DNA from: Candidatus Magasanikiibacteriota bacterium
GTDB lineage: Bacteria; Patescibacteriota; Patescibacteriia; Magasanikbacterales; GWA2-37-8
Length of the DNA: 64,000 bases
NCBI GenBank assembly: GCA_017991415.1
Contig: JAGOQR010000002.1
Location: forward strand, 17,026 to 81,025
Direction of reading: 5' to 3'
The notes beneath the pieces were generated by a model. That model was not told the DNA's origin. It did no database searches and saw only the letters and a program-made list of their open reading frames with translations. The stretch's first letter is position 1; each line of letters opens with the position of its first letter. Below, piece by piece: positions 5,245 to 36,977 of this stretch. The position numbers and the translations under genes were made by a program.

Positions 5245-5373
5245 ATAAAATCATAAAAACAGAGATAACCGTCGTATTATTGACAAAAAACCAATTATTT
5301 GATATACTTGTCTAGATTAGTCTATACAAACACAAATTAAAATAGACTTACATAATCTTTTGATCTACTCCCT

Positions 5374-5718
5374 ATGGAACAAATTGTGCCACATGCCGAG
5401 CCTACAAAAGAAGTAATACGAGTTTCAATATCTGAAGCTGCGAAATTATTTGGCGTAAACTCACAAACTATTCGTAGAGCAATCGCCTCTAAGGAGGTCA
5501 TTTATATAGTGGTGGCTGGACGATATAAGCTCAATTTTGAAAGCCTTGTTAAATGGTCCCAGCGACACACCACTATAAAAAACAAGCTTGAAAAAAAAGG
5601 GATCGGTCAATTTATTGGTGATTGGAAAATTAAAAATCCGCTCTACTCCCCTAGCCCAAAAATTGTGCCTAGTAAAAAAACAGACGACTCACCAAGCACT
5701 TCTCCCGAAACTCTTTAA
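5374..5718 (+). CDS. small DNA-binding protein, excisionase/HTH_17-type helix-turn-helix
   Basis: VSISEAAKLFGVNSQTIRRAIASKEVIYIVVAGRYKLNFESLVKW matches the excisionase-family HTH pattern (target-Glu-Ala-Ala-x-Leu-x-Gly-Val-Ser...Ile-Arg-Arg). Divergent from the ECF sigma operon across the palindromes. Confidence 0.5.
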   Translation: MEQIVPHAEPTKEVIRVSISEAAKLFGVNSQTIRRAIASKEVIYIVVAGRYKLNFESLVKWSQRHTTIKNKLEKKGIGQFIGDWKIKNPLYSPSPKIVPSKKTDDSPSTSPETL

Positions 5719-5818: not shown

Positions 5819-7564
5819 ATGCTTAATTTTCTTAAAAATCACTATCACAAAAAATACCACGGCATGTATCAGCATGCAAAAAAACTCTTTGTTTTTGACC
5901 TTGCCCTACTATCTCTCGCTATTGTCATGATGATAAGTAGCGCAGTGTTATTTTTCTGGAAACCGAGCATTGCTGGTCTTATTAACATCTCTCTCTCTTT
6001 GGGCCAAGAACGAATACAAAGCGGTGACGCAGTCCGACTAACTATTGATTATACAAATAATAGCAAACAAAATTTGAAAGATGTATCCCTTGGACTGCGT
6101 TTACCAGAAGGTTTTATTATAGACCGCACCAAAACATCAAGCGATACCTTTTCTGAGCACTCTATCTTTACTGCAATAAAAGAATTAAAAGCTGGCGCTT
6201 CTGGACAATCAGAAATCTACGGTCAATTTTGGACAGAACCAAAAGCAGAAAAACATTTTATTGCCAACCTTTCGTACAGACCAGAAAATAAAAATAGTCG
6301 GGAACAAAAACTATCTTCTTTAATATCAACTATTTCTGACAGTATTCTGGTTGGCAAAATTACCATACTCACCTCTACTTTTTCAAATACACCTGTACAA
6401 TTCACGTACACCCTTCAAAACTTGAGCGACAACCAAATCAGCAATATCTCACTTACACACAACTTAAACAAAGGTGCTATTGCCGAAAAAGATCTATCCA
6501 ACATCTCTCTTTCACCAAACGGAATCAAAGTAATACAAGGGGGATTTACGAGCCCAGAAAAATCGGGCAAGTACACATACTCCATCACACCCCAGGTGCT
6601 AGCCAACAACCACCTTATTCCACAAGGCTCGCTCAATACCGAACTAAACATTATTTCACCACAAATAATCTCTGGTGCTCGCTTATTAGGCAATGTAGCA
6701 TTTGCAGAACCAGGGCAAGTATTGCCAGTAGAAATAAGATGGGAAAATACAAGTAACTTTAAACTCGAAAACCTGACGCTTCACATTACAACCAACCTCA
6801 CTGGAGCCATTGATTGGAAAAAAACTGCCCGAGAAAATGGAGCTACAGCCGAAAATAATGGAATATTTTTTGATAGCAAATCCAGAACTAGTCTTAGTAA
6901 CGGCTCTCCAAAAAATAGCGATACATTTACGGTAAATATATACCTACTTTCCACCCTGGGCTTACCTCAAACAGAGAACGCTAAACTAGAAATATACCCA
7001 ATAATGAAAGCAAGTGCCCCTGGAATAACTGATGCAACATTTAGCCAGGACGGCTCTCGCACATCCCTTCCACTCGCCACAGAAGTAAAATTTATCGACA
7101 CAGAGGCGCGCTATTACACAGCCGAAGGCGATCAGTTGGGCCGCGGAACTCTTCCACCTACTGTTGGCAAAAATACCAAATATTGGGTTTTTGTAAAAAT
7201 AGCCAACACCTCTAACGCTTTAGAGAACATTAGCTTTAACACTACATTACCCGAAGGTGTCGAATTGAGCGGCAAACAAAGCACTACTATTGGCCCTCAG
7301 CTGCTCTATAATGCTCTTAACCGCTCTATTTCTTGGCAATACTATACTTTGCCCGCAAACAGCCAAACCGGCCTTTATTTTGAAGTGTCAGTTACTCCTA
7401 ATCAGTCCCAGGTTGGAAAAAATATACAGCTTACTAACTCTCTTAATTTCTCGGCTACAGATGATTATGTTGGAAAAAAATTCAACATCTCCCACACCCC
7501 AATCTTCAACACGCTTAACAAAAACGACCGAGGCTCCAACCTCGGATCAAAGGTACTTCCTTAG
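5819..7564 (+). CDS. membrane-anchored protein with repeated DUF11/CARDB-like beta-sandwich repeats
   Basis: N-terminal TM segment (LFVFDLALLSLAIVMMISSAVLFFW). Recurring motifs of the type DAVRLTIDYTNNS...LPEGF and GQVLPVEIRWENTSN...LENLTLHITTNLTG. Asn/Ser/Thr-rich. Confidence 0.4.
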   Translation: MLNFLKNHYHKKYHGMYQHAKKLFVFDLALLSLAIVMMISSAVLFFWKPSIAGLINISLSLGQERIQSGDAVRLTIDYTNNSKQNLKDVSLGLRLPEGFIIDRTKTSSDTFSEHSIFTAIKELKAGASGQSEIYGQFWTEPKAEKHFIANLSYRPENKNSREQKLSSLISTISDSILVGKITILTSTFSNTPVQFTYTLQNLSDNQISNISLTHNLNKGAIAEKDLSNISLSPNGIKVIQGGFTSPEKSGKYTYSITPQVLANNHLIPQGSLNTELNIISPQIISGARLLGNVAFAEPGQVLPVEIRWENTSNFKLENLTLHITTNLTGAIDWKKTARENGATAENNGIFFDSKSRTSLSNGSPKNSDTFTVNIYLLSTLGLPQTENAKLEIYPIMKASAPGITDATFSQDGSRTSLPLATEVKFIDTEARYYTAEGDQLGRGTLPPTVGKNTKYWVFVKIANTSNALENISFNTTLPEGVELSGKQSTTIGPQLLYNALNRSISWQYYTLPANSQTGLYFEVSVTPNQSQVGKNIQLTNSLNFSATDDYVGKKFNISHTPIFNTLNKNDRGSNLGSKVLP

Positions 7565-7571
7565 AAGTCAA

Positions 7572-8753
7572 CTACTTTAAAAAAGTAAAAAAACTTTTTA
7601 ACGTAAACCAGGTAAACGTTGCTAGTACAGGTATTGCCAGTAGCCAGAAGTGACGTAACCCATATGAGGAATCATCCAAATCCCCTTTTTTTCTGGCTTG
7701 CCAACAAACAAATACAAGCAACAACGCCTCAGCACCAATCACTGCCCCTCCTGCAACACTTAAAATTGTAATAAACTCACGCAAACCAAAGATAAATAAA
7801 AGAATCGGAACGCCAATCACTAAAAATTCTGCTAACACGGTATTAATTTTGCTATCCCATACAAAACTCTGTTTCAACGCAATACCTGATCCAATAAAGC
7901 CTGCACTCATAGCTAAAATAGCAAAAATATTACTTAATACGAGCACTCCTGTACCAAATTTTTCTCCTAATCCAATAGTAGCTATTTCTGAAGTTTGTAG
8001 TCCTGTGGCACCCACCACTGCCAGGGCAAATATAATATACACAGCCACTGGTATCAAAGACCCAATAATCAAAGCCTTCTTAAAACTTTTTTGATCTTTT
8101 GGTAATAATGCATGCGCCTCTATTATTGCAGGTGTCCCATTTAAAGCAAACAAGATGACTCCGTATGGTAAAAAAATATTACTCAGATCTGTGTACGCCC
8201 AATGAGCAATTTTAAAATCCTTTAAAATAAAAATTGAAAGACCTACTATAATACTTATTACAATAATACTAAGAATTTTTTCTACAACTTTTATAGTTTG
8301 CAAGCCACGCCAGACTATAATACTCGCAATAGCCCAAAAAACACCGCTCCATACAACTGGCTCACCACCAAATAAAGCGGCAAGCGACTGTCCTTCGCCG
8401 GCTATATAGGCAAGCAGGGCACCAAAAGACCCAAAAATAATCATGACATTAATAAAATATTTAGGCCACCTGCCTAGATATTTGCCAACCAAACCCGGTA
8501 TTTGCAAAGATTCTTTGGTTTTTACTGCTATTTCTCCAAGCATAAGATTAAGAGATAGCATAATAAAACCCAACACGAGTATATAGGCAATACCAACTTT
8601 GAGACCTACTTGCGCAACAACATACGGAACGCCTAAGACACCAGCTCCGATAGTCATACCCGTAATCATAAATACTGCATCGGCAACTGAAACTGGTTTT
8701 TTATATACACCTTGATGTAAAATAATTTTTTTCTCCTCAACCAACCTACTCAT
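7572..8753 (-). CDS. amino acid permease (AAAP/aromatic amino acid permease-like, 10-11 TM)
   Basis: N-terminal ITGMTIGAGVLGVPYVVAQVG motif typical of Trp/Tyr-type and AAAP permeases. Multi-TM hydropathy. Confidence 0.5.
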   Translation of the reverse strand: MSRLVEEKKIILHQGVYKKPVSVADAVFMITGMTIGAGVLGVPYVVAQVGLKVGIAYILVLGFIMLSLNLMLGEIAVKTKESLQIPGLVGKYLGRWPKYFINVMIIFGSFGALLAYIAGEGQSLAALFGGEPVVWSGVFWAIASIIVWRGLQTIKVVEKILSIIVISIIVGLSIFILKDFKIAHWAYTDLSNIFLPYGVILFALNGTPAIIEAHALLPKDQKSFKKALIIGSLIPVAVYIIFALAVVGATGLQTSEIATIGLGEKFGTGVLVLSNIFAILAMSAGFIGSGIALKQSFVWDSKINTVLAEFLVIGVPILLFIFGLREFITILSVAGGAVIGAEALLLVFVCWQARKKGDLDDSSYGLRHFWLLAIPVLATFTWFTLKSFFTFLK

Positions 8754-8820
8754 ATATAAAAGTAAATTTAAAAAATGATAATATAATTATAACACACTTT
8801 AATAAAATAACCTCTTACGC

Positions 8821-8850
8821 TTGACAAAATTGCTATTTTATGGTTAAAAT
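8821..8850 (+). promoter_or_regulatory. sigma-70-like promoter TTGACA-N18-TAAAAT carrying the extended motif ATTTTATGGTTAAAAT
   Basis: ttgaca at 8821-8826 and taaaat at 8845-8850. Points toward the GC-rich lipoprotein gene. Confidence 0.35.
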
Positions 8851-8874
8851 ACTGAGTTCTTTTAATGAATTCTT

Positions 8875-8928
8875 AGAACTAGCAAGAATTTTGAGCACTA
8901 CACATTGCCCAAAATTCTCGCTAGTTCT
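8875..8928. repeat. long hairpin (18-bp arms agaactagcaagaatttt / aaaattctcgctagttct, one mismatch) with loop ...cactacacattgccc, at the left edge of GC-rich island 1
   Basis: Inverted repeat read directly. The loop shares the 9-mer acacattgc with the H3 hairpin loop at 25493-25554. Confidence 0.4.
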
Positions 8929-8987
8929 GGCAGCCTCGCCCGATATCCGGGAAAGGTTTTGTCTCCTACCGAGAGAGTGAGGATCAC

Positions 8988-9587
8988 ATGCGTACCACGC
9001 TCACGATCACGACGACCATGGCACTGCTGATGCTCATCCTGGGCTGCAGCTCCACCAACGTCAAGCGCGCAACCACCGCCAAGTCGGCCAAGGTGACCGC
9101 CACGACGAAGACGGAGTCCAAGGAGGCGAGGAAGAAGTCGAGCGACAAGAGCGCCGAGGTCAAGAAGAAGTCGAGCAGCAGCGGCACGGTCATCGGCTAC
9201 TCGACGAAGTCGGACTACATCGTGCGGGTCTCGGGACAGAAGAACCCCGAGGTCATCCAGTTCTTGCGGCGGCTGGAGAACCAGTGCAGCTGCCCCGACG
9301 ACCTGATCACCCAGCGCATCAAGCCCACGAAGACGACTGGCAACGACGTCAGTGCGTTCAAGCTGTCGCTCTCGCCAGGAATGGGGGCGCACATCGTCTT
9401 CCAGGTGATGGTCGACGACCCCAACAACAGCGAGAACAGGGTCTACCTAAGTGAGCAAGACTGGCCGTCAATCACAGCGTTTGACGGCACCATCGACTCC
9501 CTGCGAGAAGTCGGCGTGTGGAGGAGTGGCTCCTACGGCGGCAAGGGGCGGGGGCTGTTCAAGATCGAGGAGCTCATCGTCGAGTAG
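8988..9587 (+). CDS. lipoprotein of foreign (high-GC) origin, function unknown
   Basis: Lipobox LILGC after a hydrophobic signal peptide. Almost every codon ends in G or C (roughly 60% GC by eye) against a roughly 35% GC host. SD-like GAGG 7 nt upstream. Confidence 0.55.
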   Translation: MRTTLTITTTMALLMLILGCSSTNVKRATTAKSAKVTATTKTESKEARKKSSDKSAEVKKKSSSSGTVIGYSTKSDYIVRVSGQKNPEVIQFLRRLENQCSCPDDLITQRIKPTKTTGNDVSAFKLSLSPGMGAHIVFQVMVDDPNNSENRVYLSEQDWPSITAFDGTIDSLREVGVWRSGSYGGKGRGLFKIEELIVE

Positions 9588-9646
9588 AAGCGCGTGCTTC
9601 TGCAGGATGCCAGGAAGGGCAAGGACGCGGAGCCTTGTCCCGTGTT

Positions 9647-9682
9647 GTAACTATAATTTGTATATATACAAATTATAGTTAC
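9647..9682. repeat. 36-bp perfect palindrome gtaactataatttgtata|tatacaaattatagttac at the right edge of GC-rich island 1
   Basis: Perfect inverted repeat with no spacer. Half-site AATTTGTATA resembles the 5124-5244 palindromes. Confidence 0.5.
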
Positions 9683-9704
9683 CGGGATAAGGATACTAAA
9701 ATTT

Positions 9705-9737
9705 AAAACAGCCCCGATACTATCGGGGCTGTTTTAT
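9705..9737. terminator. bidirectional rho-independent terminator (aaaacagccccgata-c-tatcggggctgtttt)
   Basis: Perfect GC-rich stem with an A-run on one side and a T-run on the other. Lies between the lipoprotein gene (+) and the tRNA genes (-). Confidence 0.6.
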
Positions 9738-9741
9738 TATG

Positions 9742-9815
9742 TAGGCGCTTAGGGATTCGAACCCTAGACCTCCTCGGTGTAAACGAGGCGCTCTAACCAA
9801 CTGAGCTAAACGCCC
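9742..9815 (-). tRNA. tRNA-Val (anticodon TAC)
   Basis: Minus-strand cloverleaf GGGCGTT-TA-GCTCAGTTGGTTAGAGC-G-CCTCG-TTTACAC-CGAGG-AGGTC-TAGGGTTCGAATCCCTA-AGCGCCT-A. Anticodon loop TT-TAC-AC. Confidence 0.7.
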
Positions 9816-15574: not shown

Positions 15575-16288
15575 CTAACCTTTTGCCTCTAATCGAGCAA
15601 AAATACTTAGGATTTTAGGAGTTTCTGGCGTATCTTTTACAACTCTGCTCAAATAGCTATCAAAATCTTCCCCATCCTGCACATAGCTCGGAAACATACT
15701 CATACGTTCTCTCATAGTCTCCTTATTTAGTTCGGGATGAAACATAAAACCCCAGATTCTCTTACCTGCTACCCTAAAGGCACTCCATGGAACCTTACTT
15801 GATTTAGCCAATGGGATAATATGCGGCGGTAAATCACTTGGCGTATCCTTGTGCCCTAAATGAACCGTAAATTTTTGAGGTAGCTGAGAAAAAATAGGGT
15901 CATCTTCCGCATGTTTAAAAAGCTCGACTTCAAAAGTACCTGTTTCTTGCATAGCTGGATCACACACCACCTTGCCCCCTTGATGCAGAGCCAAAATTTG
16001 CGACCCAAAACAAATACCCATAGTTGGAATATTTTTTTCAACTACTCGATCCAAAAAATTAAAAACTTTGGGAAGCCACGTATTTTCTCCATCTCCTTTT
16101 GATAAATAAAATTGCCCGCTACCACCCAAGATTATTCCAGAAAAATCATCTATCGTAAGAGTGCTCAAATCATCTTCAATGGCATTAAAAAAACTAAAGT
16201 TTGCATCTGAACAAATACTTGTAAAACATTTTTGCGCATGCTCTTTTGAAGCATCTATACTAAATTGAACAACAAGAACTTTATTCAT
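15575..16288 (-). CDS. class I glutamine amidotransferase-like protein
   Basis: GATase1-like motif MGICFGSQILA with catalytic Cys and downstream His (FHPE). Confidence 0.5.
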   Translation of the reverse strand: MNKVLVVQFSIDASKEHAQKCFTSICSDANFSFFNAIEDDLSTLTIDDFSGIILGGSGQFYLSKGDGENTWLPKVFNFLDRVVEKNIPTMGICFGSQILALHQGGKVVCDPAMQETGTFEVELFKHAEDDPIFSQLPQKFTVHLGHKDTPSDLPPHIIPLAKSSKVPWSAFRVAGKRIWGFMFHPELNKETMRERMSMFPSYVQDGEDFDSYLSRVVKDTPETPKILSIFARLEAKG

Positions 16289-16291
16289 ATA

Positions 16292-17557
16292 CTACTCTCT
16301 TCGAAGGGCATCAATTGGATTAAGCTCGGCAGCTTTTTTGGCAGGATAAAGCCCAAATAAAACTCCGATACAAGCAGAAAATCCGACTGATAAAATTATA
16401 GAAAAAACAGGAATACTATATACCCAATTAAAGTTATTTGAAATTGCAATAAAATATACAAGAAGCGCAAGTAATGCGCCAATTATCACGCCGACCACAC
16501 CGCCAATAAAAGTAAGTAAAACAGACTCAAAAAGAAACTGCCACAATATATCCTTTGATCGCGCGCCCAACGCCTTACGCAACCCTATTTCAAAAACTCT
16601 TTCTGAAACAGAAACATACATAATATTCATAATACCAACGCCGCCTACAACCAAAGAGATACAGACTAAGGCTACTAACAAAAATGTTATTCCGCTCACA
16701 ACACTACCGAGAATGGATACTGCCTCTTCCATGGTATTAATTGTGAAATCATCTTTATTCGGATCAGTAATATCATGGTTAGCACGGATTATTTGATTAA
16801 GATCCTCCACAGTTTGTTTTGATAAATTTTTATCTTTCATTTTGGCAATAATGTTTCGCACATAGTCTATACCTAAAACTCTTTTTTGCATGGTCTTAGT
16901 GGGCAAAATAATCATATTATCCATGTCCATACCAAAACTAGCCCCTCGCTTTACTGCAGTGCCAGCGACTCTAAAGGGCTTACCTTTAATATAAATAGTT
17001 TTTCCTGCAGCTGTATCATCACCAAACAATTTTTCTTTTACGCTCGAGCCTAGAACTACTATTTGTGTTAACGAATCCTCTTCTTCTTTGGTAAACATTC
17101 TCCCTTCGGCCAAGCTAAATTTTTCTACCTCAGGCATATTATAGCCTTGACCAACAAGCGTTACCGTTTTTATCTGACCCTGATAAGAAACTACTGCTTG
17201 GCCTATTACCCATCCATACGCCGCCACAATATTTGGATGCTTGCCAACATCTACGGTATCGCTATTTTTTAATGTAGTAATAGTTACTCCACTTGATTGC
17301 CCAATCGCATTTTCTGTTGAAGAACCTTTGGTGCTTGGAATTTTTACCTCAATGCTAAGCGTATCAGAACCAAACACTTCTAGCTGACTCATAATAAATT
17401 TATCCAAACCTCGGCCTGCAGCCAAAATAGTTATCACTACTGCAATACCAATACTAATGCCGAGAATCGTTAAGACAGACCTTGTTTTTTGCGCTAACAA
17501 AGAAGTTATAGCTAACTTAATATTTGTTCTGAGACTATCAAAAAAATAACTATTCAT
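16292..17557 (-). CDS. ABC transporter permease, MacB/FtsX family
   Basis: N-terminal TM helix, large MacB-like extracytoplasmic domain, C-terminal FtsX 3-TM bundle. The ATG at 17557 is preferred over the track TTG at 17572. Confidence 0.7.
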   Translation of the reverse strand: MNSYFFDSLRTNIKLAITSLLAQKTRSVLTILGISIGIAVVITILAAGRGLDKFIMSQLEVFGSDTLSIEVKIPSTKGSSTENAIGQSSGVTITTLKNSDTVDVGKHPNIVAAYGWVIGQAVVSYQGQIKTVTLVGQGYNMPEVEKFSLAEGRMFTKEEEDSLTQIVVLGSSVKEKLFGDDTAAGKTIYIKGKPFRVAGTAVKRGASFGMDMDNMIILPTKTMQKRVLGIDYVRNIIAKMKDKNLSKQTVEDLNQIIRANHDITDPNKDDFTINTMEEAVSILGSVVSGITFLLVALVCISLVVGGVGIMNIMYVSVSERVFEIGLRKALGARSKDILWQFLFESVLLTFIGGVVGVIIGALLALLVYFIAISNNFNWVYSIPVFSIILSVGFSACIGVLFGLYPAKKAAELNPIDALRRE

Positions 17558-21098: not shown

Positions 21099-21317
21099 TT
21101 ATTTTAAATGTTTATTTAATATAGTAAGCAAGCTTTGCATCATTTTTTGAGGTACCAAAATCAGTTTACCGAAATGTTCTACTACCAAAAACTGATCTCC
21201 GTTTTTTAATTTTAATTTGCCACGAGCTTCTTTCGGAATAACAATCTGACCACGCTCTCCCAAAACAGTAGTGCCGTACACCTTAATACCATCTTTATCA
21301 AGAAAATCCTTTGCCAT
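21099..21317 (-). CDS. AbrB/MazE/SpoVT-family DNA-binding protein
   Basis: ERGQIVIPKEARGKLKLKNGDQFLV swapped-hairpin barrel motif. 4 bp upstream of the efflux operon. Confidence 0.5.
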   Translation of the reverse strand: MAKDFLDKDGIKVYGTTVLGERGQIVIPKEARGKLKLKNGDQFLVVEHFGKLILVPQKMMQSLLTILNKHLK

Positions 21318-24016: not shown

Positions 24017-24604
24017 TTAATTAAATATAACTTCCACTTCCCTATCTCCCGCTACCAATCGCACTAATCGTTCAATTTCTTTTTTTGTATTATCTTTAGC
24101 TTCACTTTGTACTGCATCGCTGTGCGCCGCTTCCAAAGCCGCTTCTTTGAGCTTGGCATACGCCGCATTGTATCCATCATCATTATTAAAAACCTTTTTT
24201 AAAAGTCCTTGTTTATTTTGCAAGGTAACATCTCCTATTAACTCTACACCATGATCTTCAAGAGCAGACACAGTTACCGAAACTTTGCGCACATCTACCT
24301 GAATATCTTCTGGCGAAAGCTTATTTAAATCTACCCCTAAACTGGCTTTCATAGTACCTATAGCTACAATATCTTGCCCCCAGAAAAAATCCTTAAACGA
24401 ACTTCCTGTAGAACGATCGATCTTTATCTGCTGTGTAATTATATATGTCTCAGTTACCAAAAACCCTTCATGCTTAAGCGCTTGCACAATAGATTGAGAA
24501 CTTATCTGCTCACCTGGTTTATTTGGTTTTCCTAGACGGTAACCCAACAAAACACCTCCCAGTAAAACAAACAGAACCCCAATAATAATTAATTTATTTT
24601 TCAT
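24017..24604 (-). CDS. membrane-anchored protein, DUF4230-like
   Basis: Start taken at the ATG at 24604 (MKNKLIIIGVLFVLLGG...). The track ORF extends to 24922 only by reading through the GC-rich insert. Confidence 0.45.
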   Translation of the reverse strand: MKNKLIIIGVLFVLLGGVLLGYRLGKPNKPGEQISSQSIVQALKHEGFLVTETYIITQQIKIDRSTGSSFKDFFWGQDIVAIGTMKASLGVDLNKLSPEDIQVDVRKVSVTVSALEDHGVELIGDVTLQNKQGLLKKVFNNDDGYNAAYAKLKEAALEAAHSDAVQSEAKDNTKKEIERLVRLVAGDREVEVIFN

Positions 24605-24664
24605 ACTAACTAATATTAAAATACCTCTATTATACTTATCTAAACGTACCACAAAGACTGTCCT

Positions 24665-24690
24665 TTGCCAAGCAAATTTTATGGTAAAAA
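24665..24690 (+). promoter_or_regulatory. third copy of the ATTTTATGG(T)TAAAAT promoter-like motif (TTGCCA-N15-TAAAAA), immediately left of hairpin H2
   Basis: aaattttatggtaaaaat matches the 8835-8850 motif with one deleted base. The -35 and spacing are poor. Confidence 0.2.
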
Positions 24691-24696
24691 TTAAAC

Positions 24697-24758
24697 AAAA
24701 AGACCGCCTGCTCATTATTTTCCACACTATGAAAAATAATGAGCATAGAGGCGGTCTT
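24697..24758 (-). terminator. hairpin H2 (cassette-associated): aaaagaccgcctgctcattatttt / aaaataatgagc-ATAG-aggcggtctt, loop ccacactatg; acts as a rho-independent terminator for the minus-strand GC-rich gene
   Basis: About 22-bp stem with a 4-nt bulge. A run of T follows on the minus strand. Homologous to H3. Confidence 0.55.
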
Positions 24759-24827
24759 CTGGTTGAATCCGCATATGCCCCCTGTGCCAGGAAGGAAGCA
24801 AGGCGAATGAGTATAGGAGGGCGATGG

Positions 24828-25220
24828 TCAGTTCGCCCAGGAGAACGACTCGAACGGAAGCGCCGAAGCCATGACTCGCACCTGCGGAGCCTCACCGGTG
24901 CTCCGCGGCTCGATCCAGTCACGGCTGCGACGCACCTTCTTGCGCGTCGGCCCCACCACTGCAGCCATCGGAATCTTCTTGAAGATCTCGATCACGCCGG
25001 TGGGCTTCTCCCCCTTGCAGATCTTGTTGATCCGCATCCAGAGCGGCTCGGTCAGCAGCTCCGACTTGTCGAACGCGCAGACCGTGCCAGAACCACCTGC
25101 ATCATGCCTCACGTGCGGACGAGGCCGCTCGCTCGTGGCGAGCGGTCCCTTGACGTAGCGGCAGACCGTCCCATCGGGACGCTTCTGAACCAACACGAAC
25201 ACAAACAGTTGCTTGCTCAT
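24828..25220 (-). CDS. small protein (130 aa) of foreign high-GC origin, function unknown
   Basis: ATG at 25220 with GAGAGG 7 nt upstream (MSKQLFVFVLVQKRPDGTV...). Third codon positions are almost all G/C. The opposite-strand ORF is Arg-rich antisense noise. Confidence 0.5.
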   Translation of the reverse strand: MSKQLFVFVLVQKRPDGTVCRYVKGPLATSERPRPHVRHDAGGSGTVCAFDKSELLTEPLWMRINKICKGEKPTGVIEIFKKIPMAAVVGPTRKKVRRSRDWIEPRSTGEAPQVRVMASALPFESFSWAN

Positions 25221-25452
25221 CGGAACGCACCTCTCATGATTGCCGAGAAAAGAAACCTCACATTTTGGCTGCGAAAAGCTCAGGTAGAGCATCTTGGAAA
25301 CAGTCACCCCCCGTGACTGCTCCTACTTTTCACATGAAAATGCCAAACTGCAAACTGTATACTTAATGTAAAAATATACACTATGCAAGTTAGCATTATT
25401 CAAGTAAAGATAGGCCAAACGTAAATAACAAAAAAATTAAAAGAACTACAAG

Positions 25453-25481
25453 ATTATAGCCATAAAATACTCAAATGTCAA
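25453..25481 (-). promoter_or_regulatory. perfect consensus sigma-70 promoter TTGACA-N17-TATAAT on the minus strand, carrying ATTTTATGGCTATAAT
   Basis: tgtcaa at 25476-25481 and attata at 25453-25458 (plus coordinates), spacer exactly 17. Directed at the GC-rich gene starting at 25220. Confidence 0.5.
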
Positions 25482-25492
25482 TATAAATTAAA

Positions 25493-25554
25493 AAAAGACC
25501 GCCTGTTTATTATTTTCACACATTGCATAAAAACAATAAACATAAGGCGGCCTT
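25493..25554 (-). terminator. hairpin H3 (cassette-associated): aaaaagaccgcctgtttattatttt / aaaacaataaac-ATA-aggcggcctt, loop cacacattgcat; terminator of the second GC-rich gene
   Basis: Homologous to H2, with compensatory stem changes (gctc/gagc versus gttt/aaac) and the same bulge position. A T-run follows on the minus strand. Confidence 0.55.
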
Positions 25555-25589
25555 CTTCGTGCGCCGCGGACACCCTGCTCCCCGAGGAG

Positions 25590-25841
25590 CTAGAGTGCCG
25601 AAGGACGGAGATCGCTGAAGTCGCAGATCAGCGTCTGCGCACCAGGGAACAGAGGAACATGACCACGGTGTGGTGAGACGTTGGCATCTCGCATCAGTTT
25701 GATGAAGGCCGAGAGGTTCGCATGTCGATCTGGAGTGGCGACAGGCACCTTTTCGAACGGAAAGAAGGCTTGGAACACCTCCACATCGCCATCCTGACGA
25801 CCAACCTTCACGATACAGTGAACTCGCAGAGTCTTCTTCAT
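25590..25841 (-). CDS. small protein (83 aa) in GC-rich island 3, function unknown
   Basis: ATG at 25841 (MKKTLRVHCIVKVGRQDGDVEV...); an alternative GTG start lies at 25883. GC-rich codon third positions. Weak N-terminal resemblance to the 24828..25220 product. Confidence 0.35.
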   Translation of the reverse strand: MKKTLRVHCIVKVGRQDGDVEVFQAFFPFEKVPVATPDRHANLSAFIKLMRDANVSPHRGHVPLFPGAQTLICDFSDLRPSAL

Positions 25842-26042
25842 AGGAGGCCTTGGAAACCCTTGAGAGAACGTTGCACAACGCACAGAAGTCCTGAATGGAA
25901 ACCATACAATGGCTACGAAAAGTCGCTTATGCGACCTCTCACTTCTGTCTTATAGGCATTGCTAATTTGCATACTCCTCACCTCGTACAGAGATGGTAAA
26001 TATGCAAATTAACAAACGCGATTATTTGAAAGAACTTGCAGC

Positions 26043-26071
26043 AGTATACACACAAAAAACACGTCTGTCAA
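26043..26071 (-). promoter_or_regulatory. sigma-70-like promoter TTGACA-N17-TATACT on the minus strand, upstream of the island-3 gene
   Basis: tgtcaa at 26066-26071 and agtata at 26043-26048 (plus coordinates), spacer 17. Confidence 0.4.
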
Positions 26072-26106
26072 CAGAAGCATACAGACACTTGAATACCTAC
26101 GATTGT

Positions 26107-27189
26107 TTAAAGTTCTAAAAGTGTATTTTCTCCTAAAATCATCTTTTGCTCACTTGACTTACTTTGCATAACAGTTACGCCCGAACCAATAATACTACCT
26201 GCAATCTTAACATTGGCACTTATATGACATTTATTGAGAATAATAGAGTCGCTAATTTGAGCATTTTTAATAGTACTCCCCGCACCAATAGTAGTGTTAG
26301 GATAAATAACACAATCCTCGAGAGTGCAGTTTTCAGCAATAAGGACTGGGCCTGTGATTTTTACATTTTTATTTACTGTGGTGCCAATACCAATCCGCAC
26401 CTTACCCTCTATGTACGCGCCAGGCTCAACAATACCTTCTACCTTAAAATTTTCTGGAATAATTTCTTTAAGCAAAAGCTCGCTCGCTAAAATTAAATCC
26501 TCTGGTTTGCCCGTATCCTTCCACCAACCCGTAATTTCTTTATACCCAACACGTAATTTATTTTTCAAAAAATCGGAGTGTATGCTCGATATTTCGTATT
26601 CTCCCCTATCACTTTTAGCAATATTATCGAATGCGTTAAAAAAAACTTTCGGACCATATAAATAAATACCTGTAACTGCAAAATCGTTGGGCGGCACCTT
26701 CGGTTTCTCCACCACGTCTATCAACTTTCCTTGATCATCTAAAACTGGCACACCAAATCGTTCTGGATCTGGTACTTTGGACAAAGCAAGCATACAATCA
26801 TAATTACCATGGGAAAATTCATCAATAAAAGTATCCAAGCTACCCAAAATAACATTATCTGATAAATAAAACAAAAACGGATCATTCCCAATAAATTTTT
26901 CGGCCTGTTTAACTACATGGGCAATGCCTTGTGGGCCACCCTCTTGCTCAAAGAAAGTGATATTGACTCCCCAATGCCCTCCATCACCAATATATTTTTG
27001 TAACTCTGTATCACCTGGATTAGTGTTTATAAAAATATCAGTCACACCCGCAGCTACCACTTTTTCAATAGCATGAAAAATCATTGGCTTATTGGCCAAC
27101 GGAATTAAATGTTTATTCATGGTAGAGGTAACTGGGCGTAACCGTGTTGCTCTTCCCCCTCCCGTTAAAATAGCTTTTTTAATTTTCAT
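26107..27189 (-). CDS. sugar-phosphate nucleotidyltransferase (glucose-1-phosphate thymidylyltransferase-like) with C-terminal left-handed beta-helix domain
   Basis: N-terminal GGGRATRLRP G-loop. Hexapeptide repeats in the C-terminal third. Confidence 0.6.
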   Translation of the reverse strand: MKIKKAILTGGGRATRLRPVTSTMNKHLIPLANKPMIFHAIEKVVAAGVTDIFINTNPGDTELQKYIGDGGHWGVNITFFEQEGGPQGIAHVVKQAEKFIGNDPFLFYLSDNVILGSLDTFIDEFSHGNYDCMLALSKVPDPERFGVPVLDDQGKLIDVVEKPKVPPNDFAVTGIYLYGPKVFFNAFDNIAKSDRGEYEISSIHSDFLKNKLRVGYKEITGWWKDTGKPEDLILASELLLKEIIPENFKVEGIVEPGAYIEGKVRIGIGTTVNKNVKITGPVLIAENCTLEDCVIYPNTTIGAGSTIKNAQISDSIILNKCHISANVKIAGSIIGSGVTVMQSKSSEQKMILGENTLLEL

Positions 27190-35680: not shown

Positions 35681-35709
35681 TTGACAAGTTTACCGATTTA
35701 TACTATAAT
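35681..35709 (+). promoter_or_regulatory. perfect consensus sigma-70 promoter TTGACA-N17-TATAAT upstream of rpmA
   Basis: ttgaca at 35681-35686 and tataat at 35704-35709, spacer 17. Confidence 0.5.
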
Positions 35710-35753
35710 AAGCCCACGATTTTTGTTAATTGCTAATTGTTAATTTTTAAAAT

Positions 35754-36032
35754 ATGTCTCATAAAAAAGCGGGTGGCTCCACTCGGTTGGGTCGCGATTC
35801 TGCCGCTCAACGCTTAGGTGTTAAACTTCACGATGGTGAAGTAGTTAAAAAAGGAATGATTATCATTCGCCAAAGAGGCACTAAATTCCACCCTGGAAAA
35901 AATGTCAAAAAAGGCGGAGATGACACAATTTTTGCTATGGCAAACGGTAAGGTGAAATTCACCCAACATAAAAGACGTCGTTTTGACGGCACTATGAAAA
36001 TGTTCAAATTTGTTCACGTTGTCACAGAATAA
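35754..36032 (+). CDS. rpmA: 50S ribosomal protein L27
   Basis: [24 protein letters not shown] is the canonical L27 N-terminus. Confidence 0.9.
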
Positions 36033-36039
36033 TAACACT

Positions 36040-36076
36040 AAAACAAAAAACCTCCTGCTAACAGGAGGTTTTTTGT
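36040..36076. terminator. bidirectional rho-independent terminator (aaaaaacctcctg-ttagc-aggaggttttttg)
   Basis: Perfect stem with A/T runs on both sides, between the convergent rpmA gene and the epimerase gene. Confidence 0.6.
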
Positions 36077-36083
36077 TTTAGTG

Positions 36084-36977
36084 TTATTTCTTAAGCTGTA
36101 ACAAACCTTCTTGAAGCGTAACGGTTGGCTCCCAACCCAGCACACTCTTTGCTAAACTTCTATCCGCTTCAATAAAACGCATCTCCCCAAAACGCGGATC
36201 AATATTAACAGTTTCACCTCCAATTAAAGCAGCTATTTCATTAACGCTTGTTTGCTTGCCTGATCCAATATTAATTGGAGCACCACTATTAATTATATTT
36301 TGATTCCAAGCTAAAATATTTGCTCGCACAACATCCGAAACATGCACATAATCACGAGTACTTTTACCATCTCCTACTATGGTTAATTTCTGTCCTTTTT
36401 TCTGCTGCTCCAAAAAAATTGGAATGACCATAGGGTAAGAACCTGTAGCCAATTTCCGCGGCCCAAAAACATTAAAATAACGAAGGCAAACGGTTGATAA
36501 ATTATACAACGAAGAAAATAAACGGCAATATTCTTCTCCCATCAACTTATGGAGACCGTATGGACTGAGCGGTCTGGTAATAAAAGATTCTTGAATTGGC
36601 AGCACCTTTTGCTCGCCATAGGTGGCGCACGAAGAAGAAAAAACTACTTTTTTAACGTTATTTTCCTTGGCGGCCAACAACACATTAAGCGTTCCTGTTA
36701 CATTAATTTCATGCGTAGTAGCTGGATCCTCAACAGACACTTGCAATCGCGGATCTGCCGCCAAATGGAATACTGCTTCAACGCCTTTAAAAATTTTACT
36801 GATTTTTTTATAATCACGTATATCTGCCTTATAAAACTTTGCTTTTTTATTAATAAATTCTTTTTTTCCAAGCATTAAATTGTCAACTACAAACACCTCA
36901 TGACCAAGAGCCACCAAAGCGTCAGTGAGGTGGGAACCAATAAATCCCGCACCTCCCGTAACAACTAACTTAGACAT
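36084..36977 (-). CDS. NAD-dependent sugar epimerase (UDP-glucose 4-epimerase-like, short form)
   Basis: VVTGGAGFIGSH Rossmann motif; YxxxK (YGLHK). Confidence 0.55.
   Translation of the reverse strand: MSKLVVTGGAGFIGSHLTDALVALGHEVFVVDNLMLGKKEFINKKAKFYKADIRDYKKISKIFKGVEAVFHLAADPRLQVSVEDPATTHEINVTGTLNVLLAAKENNVKKVVFSSSCATYGEQKVLPIQESFITRPLSPYGLHKLMGEEYCRLFSSLYNLSTVCLRYFNVFGPRKLATGSYPMVIPIFLEQQKKGQKLTIVGDGKSTRDYVHVSDVVRANILAWNQNIINSGAPINIGSGKQTSVNEIAALIGGETVNIDPRFGEMRFIEADRSLAKSVLGWEPTVTLQEGLLQLKK

Follow-up and report, generated by a model that had tools for sequence, protein, structure and literature searches.

Moron-like GC-rich units in a conserved expression slot between two core genes of Candidatus Magasanikbacteria: probable horizontal acquisition with turnover of cargo

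Phage morons are single open reading frames (ORFs), each with a promoter on one side and a terminator on the other, that lie inserted between genes neighboring each other in relatives and deviate in nucleotide composition (PMC4378225; the Hendrix/Juhala concept). Two units of similar outline, A and B, lie in tandem on the minus strand of the 1.5 kb at 24605-26106 of a 64-kb stretch of DNA, here called the window, from a metagenome-assembled genome (MAG) of Candidatus Magasanikbacteria, an uncultivated lineage of Patescibacteria or candidate phyla radiation (CPR); protein matches of this MAG in NCBI bear KBC69_ locus tags. Each unit consists of a near-consensus sigma-70 promoter, a structured leader of ~200 nucleotides (nt), an ORF rich in guanine and cytosine (GC) and a predicted hairpin terminator. 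The reading favored here, which is probable though well short of certain, is that these are horizontally acquired, moron-like units in a conserved expression slot, with turnover of cargo, between two core genes.

The likeness to phage morons extends to the single ORF with its own sigma-70 promoter and predicted intrinsic terminator, to a composition differing from that of the surroundings, to a position between core genes, and to accessory cargo that is often without homologues (one here is a lipoprotein). Unlike morons, the units are in the core chromosome, between glycan-synthesis and pilus genes, and not in a phage or prophage; the neighbors are glycan-synthesis genes, pilT, the CCA-adding enzyme gene, dnaG and rpoD, and there is no PHROG match and no relative in viral contigs. 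Their leaders are long and structured, and between species promoter-leader and terminator stay conserved where the ORF differs. To our knowledge a conserved expression scaffold with a changing ORF is undescribed for morons, and no description of this arrangement was found in the literature searched.

Chromosomal integration hotspots and flexible islets (replacement islands) share with the locus a fixed core-gene position, varying accessory content, atypical composition and evidence of flank recombination. In contrast to such islands, the slot is tiny, with 1-2 genes in 0.6-1.5 kb and no mobility genes, and its conserved flanks extend into promoter, 5′ untranslated region (UTR) and terminator, the swapped piece being the ribosome-binding site, the ORF and ~30 nt. 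Within the phylum, a survey of Patescibacteria inferred horizontal transfers, mostly within Patescibacteria, from donor-recipient homology (PMC12455944). The window would likewise be a case of a streamlined Patescibacteria genome gaining single genes horizontally, including genes of unknown function, but it departs from the surveyed cases in having cargo without a detectable donor, an extreme GC content at third codon positions (GC3) as the signal, and a conserved expression scaffold.

In total ~120 kb of the lineage was examined, comprising the window and related loci recovered by a scan with the protein of a DUF4230 gene next to the units and by exact-protein look-ups. The loci compared with the window include those of a divergent strain (L001/L004), a sister species (L011, L014-L017) that has a single unit, X, at the same site, another Magasanikbacteria MAG (L009), a more distant relative (L010), and a ~1-kb contig (L003, from run SRR28520274) equivalent to window 25949-24936. 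The parts of units B and A, in the order in which they would be transcribed, are as follows.

26043..26071, minus strand: promoter B, TTGACA-N17-TATACT, 11/12 matches to consensus, orthologous to the promoter of unit X of the sister species (78% over 37 nt)
25842..26042, minus strand: leader B, an AT-rich 5′ UTR starting AGTTCTTTCAAAT, with a long hairpin (arms 25959-26015; inverted repeat I1) and a second hairpin, fold z-score (z) -7.6
25590..25841, minus strand: ORF B, KBC69_02635, 83 amino acids (aa), isoelectric point (pI) 9.2, GC ~54%, GC by codon position 0.66/0.39/0.60
25493..25554, minus strand: hairpin H3, predicted two-tier intrinsic terminator of unit B, -34.9 kcal/mol, z -7.6, covariance-model score 89 bits
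25453..25481, minus strand: promoter A, TTGACA-N17-TATAAT, perfect consensus, 12/12 matches
25221..25452, minus strand: leader A, starting AGTTCTTTTAAT (25447-25436), with a long AT-rich hairpin and a CAGTCAC-GGGGG-GTGACTG hairpin, fold z -3.8
24828..25220, minus strand: ORF A, KBC69_02630, 130 aa, pI 10.2, GC ~62%, GC by codon position 0.58/0.49/0.81
24697..24758, minus strand: hairpin H2, predicted two-tier intrinsic terminator of unit A, separating it from DUF4230-pilT, -39.4 kcal/mol, z -9.9, covariance-model score 87 bits

GC content is 0.55-0.64 over ~24700-25300 and 0.53-0.57 over ~25500-25900, in surroundings of 0.30-0.40, and the mean for the 64 kb is ~0.37. Native genes (pilT, the nucleoside triphosphate (NTP) transferase gene and one glycosyltransferase gene) have a GC3 of 0.27-0.31, as against 0.81 for A and 0.60 for B. 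A first-pass annotation, made from the letters and a list of ORFs, had proposed two compositionally foreign segments here, and both profiles confirm them. The GC-rich segments are protein-coding and have been kept as coding sequence. A Shine-Dalgarno site stands in front of each ORF, the NCBI annotation gives the same ORFs, and high GC3 is kept in both diverged strains. In comparisons with the divergent strain, for which dS is 0.22-0.41, the ratio of nonsynonymous to synonymous substitution rates (dN/dS) is 0.64 for A, 0.25 for B (its last 37 codons) and 0.25 for the ORF of a third unit, C, described below; the cassette region is identical between the window and a 98%-identical strain, so that pair yields no rate information. 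Other gene callers preferred an ORF of 129 aa in another frame and one of 211 aa on the antisense strand, an error typical of GC-rich DNA.

In an AT-rich genome a GC-rich island is frequently a structured RNA. The moderate GC3 of B, and the long alternative-frame and antisense ORFs picked by those gene callers, would suit the idea that the units, or at least B, are structured non-coding RNA genes in which the ORFs are incidental. This is very improbable in view of the strong three-base periodicity of A and C (GC3 0.81-0.90), the coding-typical distribution of GC over the codon positions of B, substitutions that in C and B favor synonymous sites, the Shine-Dalgarno site at each ORF and the absence of an Rfam match even at E 10. 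Over the whole window Rfam yields two tRNAs only, with nothing credible in 24500-26200 or 8700-9760 even at E 1-10, and ARAGORN detects no transfer-messenger RNA.

Sharp GC transitions in a source that is metagenome-assembled are also what an assembly chimera, or contamination of the MAG by high-GC reads, would produce, and the first-pass annotation had pointed to the junctions for this reason. Logan contigs from five runs (ERR7336230, ERR7337951, SRR28520274, SRR11088486 and ERR7338890) cross the GC junctions of A, B and C. An identical DUF4230 protein is present in each of seven contigs that were read, among them a pair of the 0.2-1 Mb class, and two contigs are colinear with the window over 8.6 kb, one 100% identical (SRR11088469) and the other 98.2% (ERR8482633). 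As contigs of independent sequencing runs cross every GC junction, the region is not chimeric; separate runs yielded these junctions independently, on contigs reaching the 0.2-1 Mb class, and the divergent strain and the sister species have the same architecture at the same site. Chimerism or contamination is almost certainly not the explanation.

The slot that holds the units has these borders.

26107..27189, minus strand: NTP transferase (sugar-nucleotidyl), the final gene of the glycan locus, bordering the slot on the left; PF00483 is present in the orthologues of L014 and L018, and the 3′ end is 80% identical to that of the sister species
24017..24604, minus strand: DUF4230 gene, followed by pilT, right border of the slot; PF14014 at E 5e-13, which bears out its earlier description as DUF4230-like; orthologues in L009-L011 are 74-78% identical

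In the sister species gene order is identical, namely glycan locus, NTP transferase, slot, DUF4230, pilT and CCA-adding enzyme, and the slot holds the one unit X, whose 137-aa ORF has 53% GC and a GC3 of 0.64. The promoter and leader of X align with those of B (z 5.6), both leader hairpins being preserved by different sequences, and H2 with its 3′ UTR is orthologous to the sister-species hairpin (76% over 68 nt, z 9.9). ORF X, on the other hand, is related to neither A (z 0.9) nor B (z 2.1), with an hhalign probability of 0.2 for the comparison with these two, and the piece that cannot be aligned between the two species is roughly the ribosome-binding region, the ORF and ~30 nt. The conserved flanks with unrelated cargo that had been suspected from the window are thus found between species. 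Because the segment between conserved parts of the scaffold is wholly different in related species, cargo has probably been replaced inside a fixed slot, and with the scaffold conserved across species while its cargo is replaced, the site behaves as a reusable slot.

In another Magasanikbacteria MAG (L009) a GC-rich gene of hypoxanthine phosphoribosyltransferase (HPRT) type adjoins DUF4230 at 7100-7965 of the minus strand of that locus, in inverted orientation relative to the window units. This gene, MFA6424343.1, has a GC3 of 0.79 and matches PF00156 (1e-22) and HPRT in the PDB (4e-29), and it is followed by a hairpin of the H2/H3 type (z 5.2-5.8 against these two) that has no clean T run. 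This gene is a candidate for tracing the donor lineage. The more distant relative, L010, has no unit at DUF4230, upstream of which its sequence is unrelated. A moderately GC-rich non-coding stretch with several stem-loops stands there in place of a cassette (7620-7830 of L010).

Could A, B and X instead be one native gene, fast-evolving and lineage-specific, whose GC richness is maintained by selection on the stability, structure or translation rate of the mRNA? None of the searches brought up a donor homologue, A has a dN/dS of 0.64 and a hypervariable region before its ATG, GC3 stays high in both diverged strains, and the cargo proteins are all small and basic (pI 9.2-11.4), all of which would suit such a gene, as would the similar strand-strand-helix-strand order that low-confidence AlphaFold2 models predict for A and B. 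Yet selection on a lineage-specific protein cannot explain the HPRT cargo, an ordinary enzyme family at the same site with a GC3 of 0.79. The leaders of B and X align while their ORFs do not, the reverse of gradual divergence at one locus, and from the rates between strains orthologues at sister-species distance would be expected to be 50-60% identical. A native origin is accordingly considered improbable, and the favored reading, acquisition from outside, is kept in what follows.

H2 and H3 have 5 and 7 T, respectively, after the stem, and by their stable stem-loop, the T run that follows and their position 3′ of an ORF they are predicted intrinsic (Rho-independent) terminators. H3 has a GC-rich base, a 3-nt bulge on the 5′ side, an AT-rich upper stem and a T run. 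Over 26 nt the arms of H2 and H3 share 92% identity, their upper stem has undergone compensatory changes, and the two fold at -39 and -35 kcal/mol, in agreement with the original description of two clearly homologous hairpins ending in T runs. An alignment of six copies of this family, H, shows compensatory changes at 10/27 pairs. That H might be an ordinary genome-wide terminator had been put forward as the finding that would undo a cassette interpretation, but within the ~120 kb it is found only beside GC-rich cargo. A covariance model of H scores 87-89 bits in the window at H2 and H3 only, the next best being short generic terminators at 23 bits, and in related loci the cassette hairpins are the sole matches. 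The family is beside GC-rich cargo in 4/4 cases (A, B, X and HPRT). Among 185,579 species representatives, a collection that does not include the source genome, the exact-stem pattern occurs in two unrelated genomes, in terminators.

Like integron cassettes and clusters of attC sites lacking integron-integrases (CALIN), the window has tandem single-gene units that end in imperfect ~60-nt hairpins, with unrelated cargo between similar hairpins, and the ATTCAAC ... GTTTAAT on either side of H2 departs from RYYYAAC/GTTRRRY by a single mismatch. The first-pass annotation accordingly thought of integron or CALIN cassettes, in which H2 and H3 would be attC sites. The likeness does not hold up. Such cores are missing at H3, at the H2 of the divergent strain (L001) and at the hairpin of the sister species (L011/L014), so conserved R/L cores are lacking, and the array has just 1-2 units. 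Integron cassettes are generally promoterless and expressed from the common promoter Pc, whereas each unit here has its own 11-12/12 promoter. The near-perfect stems and T runs of H2 and H3 are terminator anatomy, without an Rfam match, and H3 is not a hybrid site but a co-varied paralogue of H2. The window lacks intI, and no integrase, transposase or recombinase Pfam domain occurs in any ORF tested in the window and related loci, which for the window upholds the earlier statement that no integrase or recombinase gene is present. Membership in the integron family is highly improbable.

A new site-specific cassette system, analogous to integrons, in which the H hairpin or the whole scaffold is the recombination site for a recombinase encoded elsewhere, has more to recommend it. 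H is only beside GC-rich cargo, in all four cases, and both orientations occur with respect to DUF4230; promoter A, leader A and ORF A lie between H2 and H3, which form direct repeats, as they would had a circle integrated; and cargo differs between orthologous flanks. The hairpins of unit C and of a further unit, D, in L010 also share the two-tier shape of H (GC base and AT top), and the 5′ bulge is present in the H family and C. Their sequences are, however, unrelated to H, and neither the window nor the related loci yielded a recombinase. H3, whose two arms have changed together, is no two-site hybrid; H2 and H3 have T runs and are exactly where terminators are needed (the L009 hairpin lacks a clean T run); and the hairpin pattern is in only two unrelated genomes of the 185,579 species representatives. 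On balance such a system is unlikely, and terminators within a scaffold remain the preferred interpretation of H2 and H3.

A third unit of the same build, C, which the first-pass annotation had not included, is on the plus strand of the window at 8821-9697, between an amino-acid permease gene and tRNA-Val/tRNA-Lys.

8821-8850, plus strand: promoter of unit C, TTGACA-N18-TAAAAT, a near-consensus match
from 8855, plus strand: leader of unit C, starting AGTTCTTTTAAT (8855-8866), hairpin-rich by its sequence, with a long hairpin
8988-9587, plus strand: ORF C, KBC69_02550, a 199-aa lipoprotein with an LGC lipobox, GC3 0.90, dN/dS 0.25
9631-9697, plus strand: hairpin of unit C, GC-clamped in its fold and enclosing a 36-base-pair (bp) AT palindrome

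The GC content of unit C is 0.61 and its folds have z -5.8 and -9.6. Other strains carry it at the same site, one of them with a 33-codon low-complexity deletion, and for the substitutions in C among three strains the window strain is the outlier, with the direction not polarized. The upper stem of the ORF C hairpin is a perfect 36-bp AT-only palindrome, GTAACTATAATTTGTATATATACAAATTATAGTTAC, at 9646-9681, which in the divergent strain differs by one loop base. Unit D is at a locus other than DUF4230, at 15833-16320 (plus strand) of L010, and has TTGACA-N17-TAAGTT, a leader hairpin, a 74-aa ORF rich in Lys, Arg and Ala (pI 11.4, GC3 ~0.79), and a two-tier hairpin with a T run.

The near-consensus sigma-70 promoters noted from the outset at 25481-25453 and 26071-26043, with their 12/12 and 11/12 matches, are the best two sigma-70 matches within 20-30 kb. 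On both strands of the whole 64 kb there are six sites with at least 11/12 matches, of which three drive A, B and C and one drives rpmA, so the cassette promoters are of the native strong type. The rpmA gene (ribosomal protein L27, 35754-36032) is a lone plus-strand gene, and its unit, 35681-36095, has a simple terminator and, as promoter, a perfect TTGACA-N17-TATAAT. This makes it a handy native standard against which promoters of this genome can be judged for strength. Only A and C have the promoter motif ATTTTATGGYTAWAAT in common. Both have TATTTTATGG before the -10 element and an exact AGTTCTTTTAAT right after it, a position at which B has AGTTCTTTCAAAT; the two promoters share an exact 12-mer and a 10-mer in register. 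As the alignment of the A and C promoters (z 3.6) is not above that of A and rpmA (z 3.2), common descent of the first two is suggestive only. The promoter and transcription-start motif had no match in metagenomes of the Joint Genome Institute (JGI). A possible plus-strand promoter at 24665-24692 was rejected for its wrong spacing and because the motif is not kept in L001.

The strong structure of the leaders, with fold z from -3.8 to -7.6, is an addition to what had been noted before. Between strains leader A is 94.7% identical over 25452-25264 and 52.6% over 25263-25221, with ORF A at 85.8%. The hypervariable 43 nt (25263-25221) lie directly before the ATG of ORF A, contain the ribosome-binding site and have a 5-nt indel between strains. 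A leader peptide in leader A was considered and rejected, since strain differences across the 30-codon frame in question are almost all non-synonymous.

The L003 contig is a mosaic in which ORF B and ORF A are identical to the window and the part from 25605 to 25321, with H3, promoter A and leader A, is identical to the divergent strain. Together with the abrupt drop in identity from 94.7% to 52.6% at 25263, the mosaic would imply that scaffold and cargo have partly separate histories.

On the favored reading, transcription of a unit would start at a near-consensus sigma-70 promoter equal in grade to that of the native gene rpmA, and the transcript would consist of a folded AT-rich 5′ UTR of ~200 nt, a Shine-Dalgarno site and the coding sequence of one small basic protein from a GC-rich gene. 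The two-tier hairpin and its T run would terminate the unit and insulate the next unit or DUF4230-pilT. The coding segments would have come by horizontal transfer, from a single high-GC donor or several, at a time preceding the divergence of the sampled strains, and would then have been retained as protein-coding genes, with the promoter-leader and the 3′ UTR-hairpin serving as an expression scaffold that is conserved and vertically inherited. The most likely route of exchange would be homologous or homology-facilitated recombination within the scaffold after uptake of DNA. The high-GC donor, the recombination route and high expression are what we infer from the arrangement. Cargo composition is far from that of the recipient (GC 0.54-0.63 versus 0.30-0.40; GC3 0.60-0.90 versus ~0.3), and cargo is patchy, with the window, L014 and L009 all differing. 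The island borders bear no target-site duplications. Two of the related contigs, L016 and L019, both from run ERR8482633, place the window species (with units B and A) and the sister species (with unit X) in one sample. Their presence in the same sample makes DNA exchange between the two physically plausible.

Searches with the cargo proteins were extensive. Among 5.8 billion protein clusters a word-indexed search with A, B and C gave same-lineage matches only; for A there is a single homologue, 74% identical and of the same lineage. An exhaustive HMMER search of 1.8 billion representatives with a profile of A returned repetitive or spurious proteins only, tblastn of A against phage genomes gave one match at E 0.4, and viral-contig scans found no relatives of A, B or C. 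Against Pfam, PHROGs, NCBIfam and PADLOC there was nothing for the three beyond signal-peptide-like noise for C. In the PDB sequence search A and C had no match and X had noise (E 0.7-0.8). Residues 35-70 of ORF B (25632-25739) weakly match a designed ankyrin repeat at E 2e-4, though no stretch is significant by itself and Pfam shows no ankyrin, and this is possibly a single degenerate repeat or chance. A BLASTP comparison of A with B gave E 0.016 over a short, non-colinear stretch. The AlphaFold2 models that suggest the strand-strand-helix-strand order, and for A a disordered basic tail, have a predicted local distance difference test (pLDDT) score of 45 (A) and 53 (B), which is low confidence. 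As a guess by analogy with the accessory functions of phage morons, A and B may be accessory cytoplasmic, possibly nucleic-acid-binding, factors.

Small variable ORFs without homologues, in tandem at a variable site, had also called to mind orphan polymorphic-toxin or immunity modules. This comparison, too, has been dropped, as a full-length toxin gene is absent from the vicinity, the units share neither a 5′ homology region nor an N-terminal region, and there is no Pfam, NCBIfam, PADLOC or PHROG match. Each unit has its own promoter and terminator, and one cargo at the site is a purine-salvage enzyme. Modules of that kind are extremely unlikely here.

Several points weigh against the reading of horizontally acquired units with cargo turnover. 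No donor homologue of A, B, C or X was found among ~15 billion proteins, so it is composition that speaks for their horizontal transfer, HPRT being the only cargo in a known family, a universal one. No relative examined has an empty site, the sister slot being filled by other cargo, so that insertion as such was not seen. The dN/dS of A is high, and confidence in the two structure predictions is low. L003, the mosaic, comes from a mixed community as a contig of 1 kb and is possibly itself an assembly mosaic, and the ~120 kb covered includes a fraction of the source genome. Amelioration of foreign genes toward the AT-rich composition of the recipient is consistent with the data and unproven. 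The terminator of unit C differs from H and the promoter-leader of the HPRT unit is unlike all others, from which it follows that the scaffold is locus-specific and not a general module.

In Patescibacteria genomes are tiny, the hosts are for the most part unknown and genetics hardly exists. Repeated installation of foreign genes under ready-made native signals would show how streamlined genomes gain functions, and the locus offers natural parts of experimental use in this group: a predicted strong promoter, a leader, a predicted terminator and a site that tolerates insertion. With its extreme GC3, the cargo may bear a fingerprint of the donor, perhaps a partner organism. These bacteria are known to be nucleotide-dependent, and an HPRT purine-salvage gene at the corresponding site in a relative fits that dependence. 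A mechanistically directed exchange of cargo would amount to a gene-capture system separate from integrons; should ordinary hotspot recombination be all there is to it, the locus is still a well-documented chromosomal counterpart of phage morons. A wider proposal, speculative and as a whole doubtful, is that Magasanikbacteria, and perhaps other Patescibacteria, keep expression slots whose strong promoter, structured leader and two-tier hairpin, all of them conserved, are landing pads for DNA from a high-GC partner, that the genes are swapped between strains, and that the cargo, be it a small basic protein, a lipoprotein or a purine-salvage enzyme, acts at the symbiont-host interface. Were this so, captured genes of the host, or of a phage of the host, would be expressed at once and cargo composition would point to the host of the lineage.

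The minus strand carries nearly all genes of the window. From 26 to 64 kb it is a single long glycan-synthesis locus, and from 10 to 24 kb there are core genes: murG, rpoD, dnaG, an ABC/MacB efflux set, the CCA-adding enzyme gene, pilT and DUF4230. Between the CCA-adding enzyme gene and the efflux membrane-fusion gene is a 72-aa gene of MazE/AbrB-like antitoxin type (21099-21317, minus strand), which has its own promoter-like site, is not GC-rich and had no partner toxin gene in view; the sister species is without a gene there. A lone plus-strand gene of 114 aa is at 5280-5718 with an 11/12 promoter, and in the precomputed annotation of a related contig, though not in a Pfam scan (E 1e-5), it has a weak match to HTH_17, an excisionase-like DNA-binding family.

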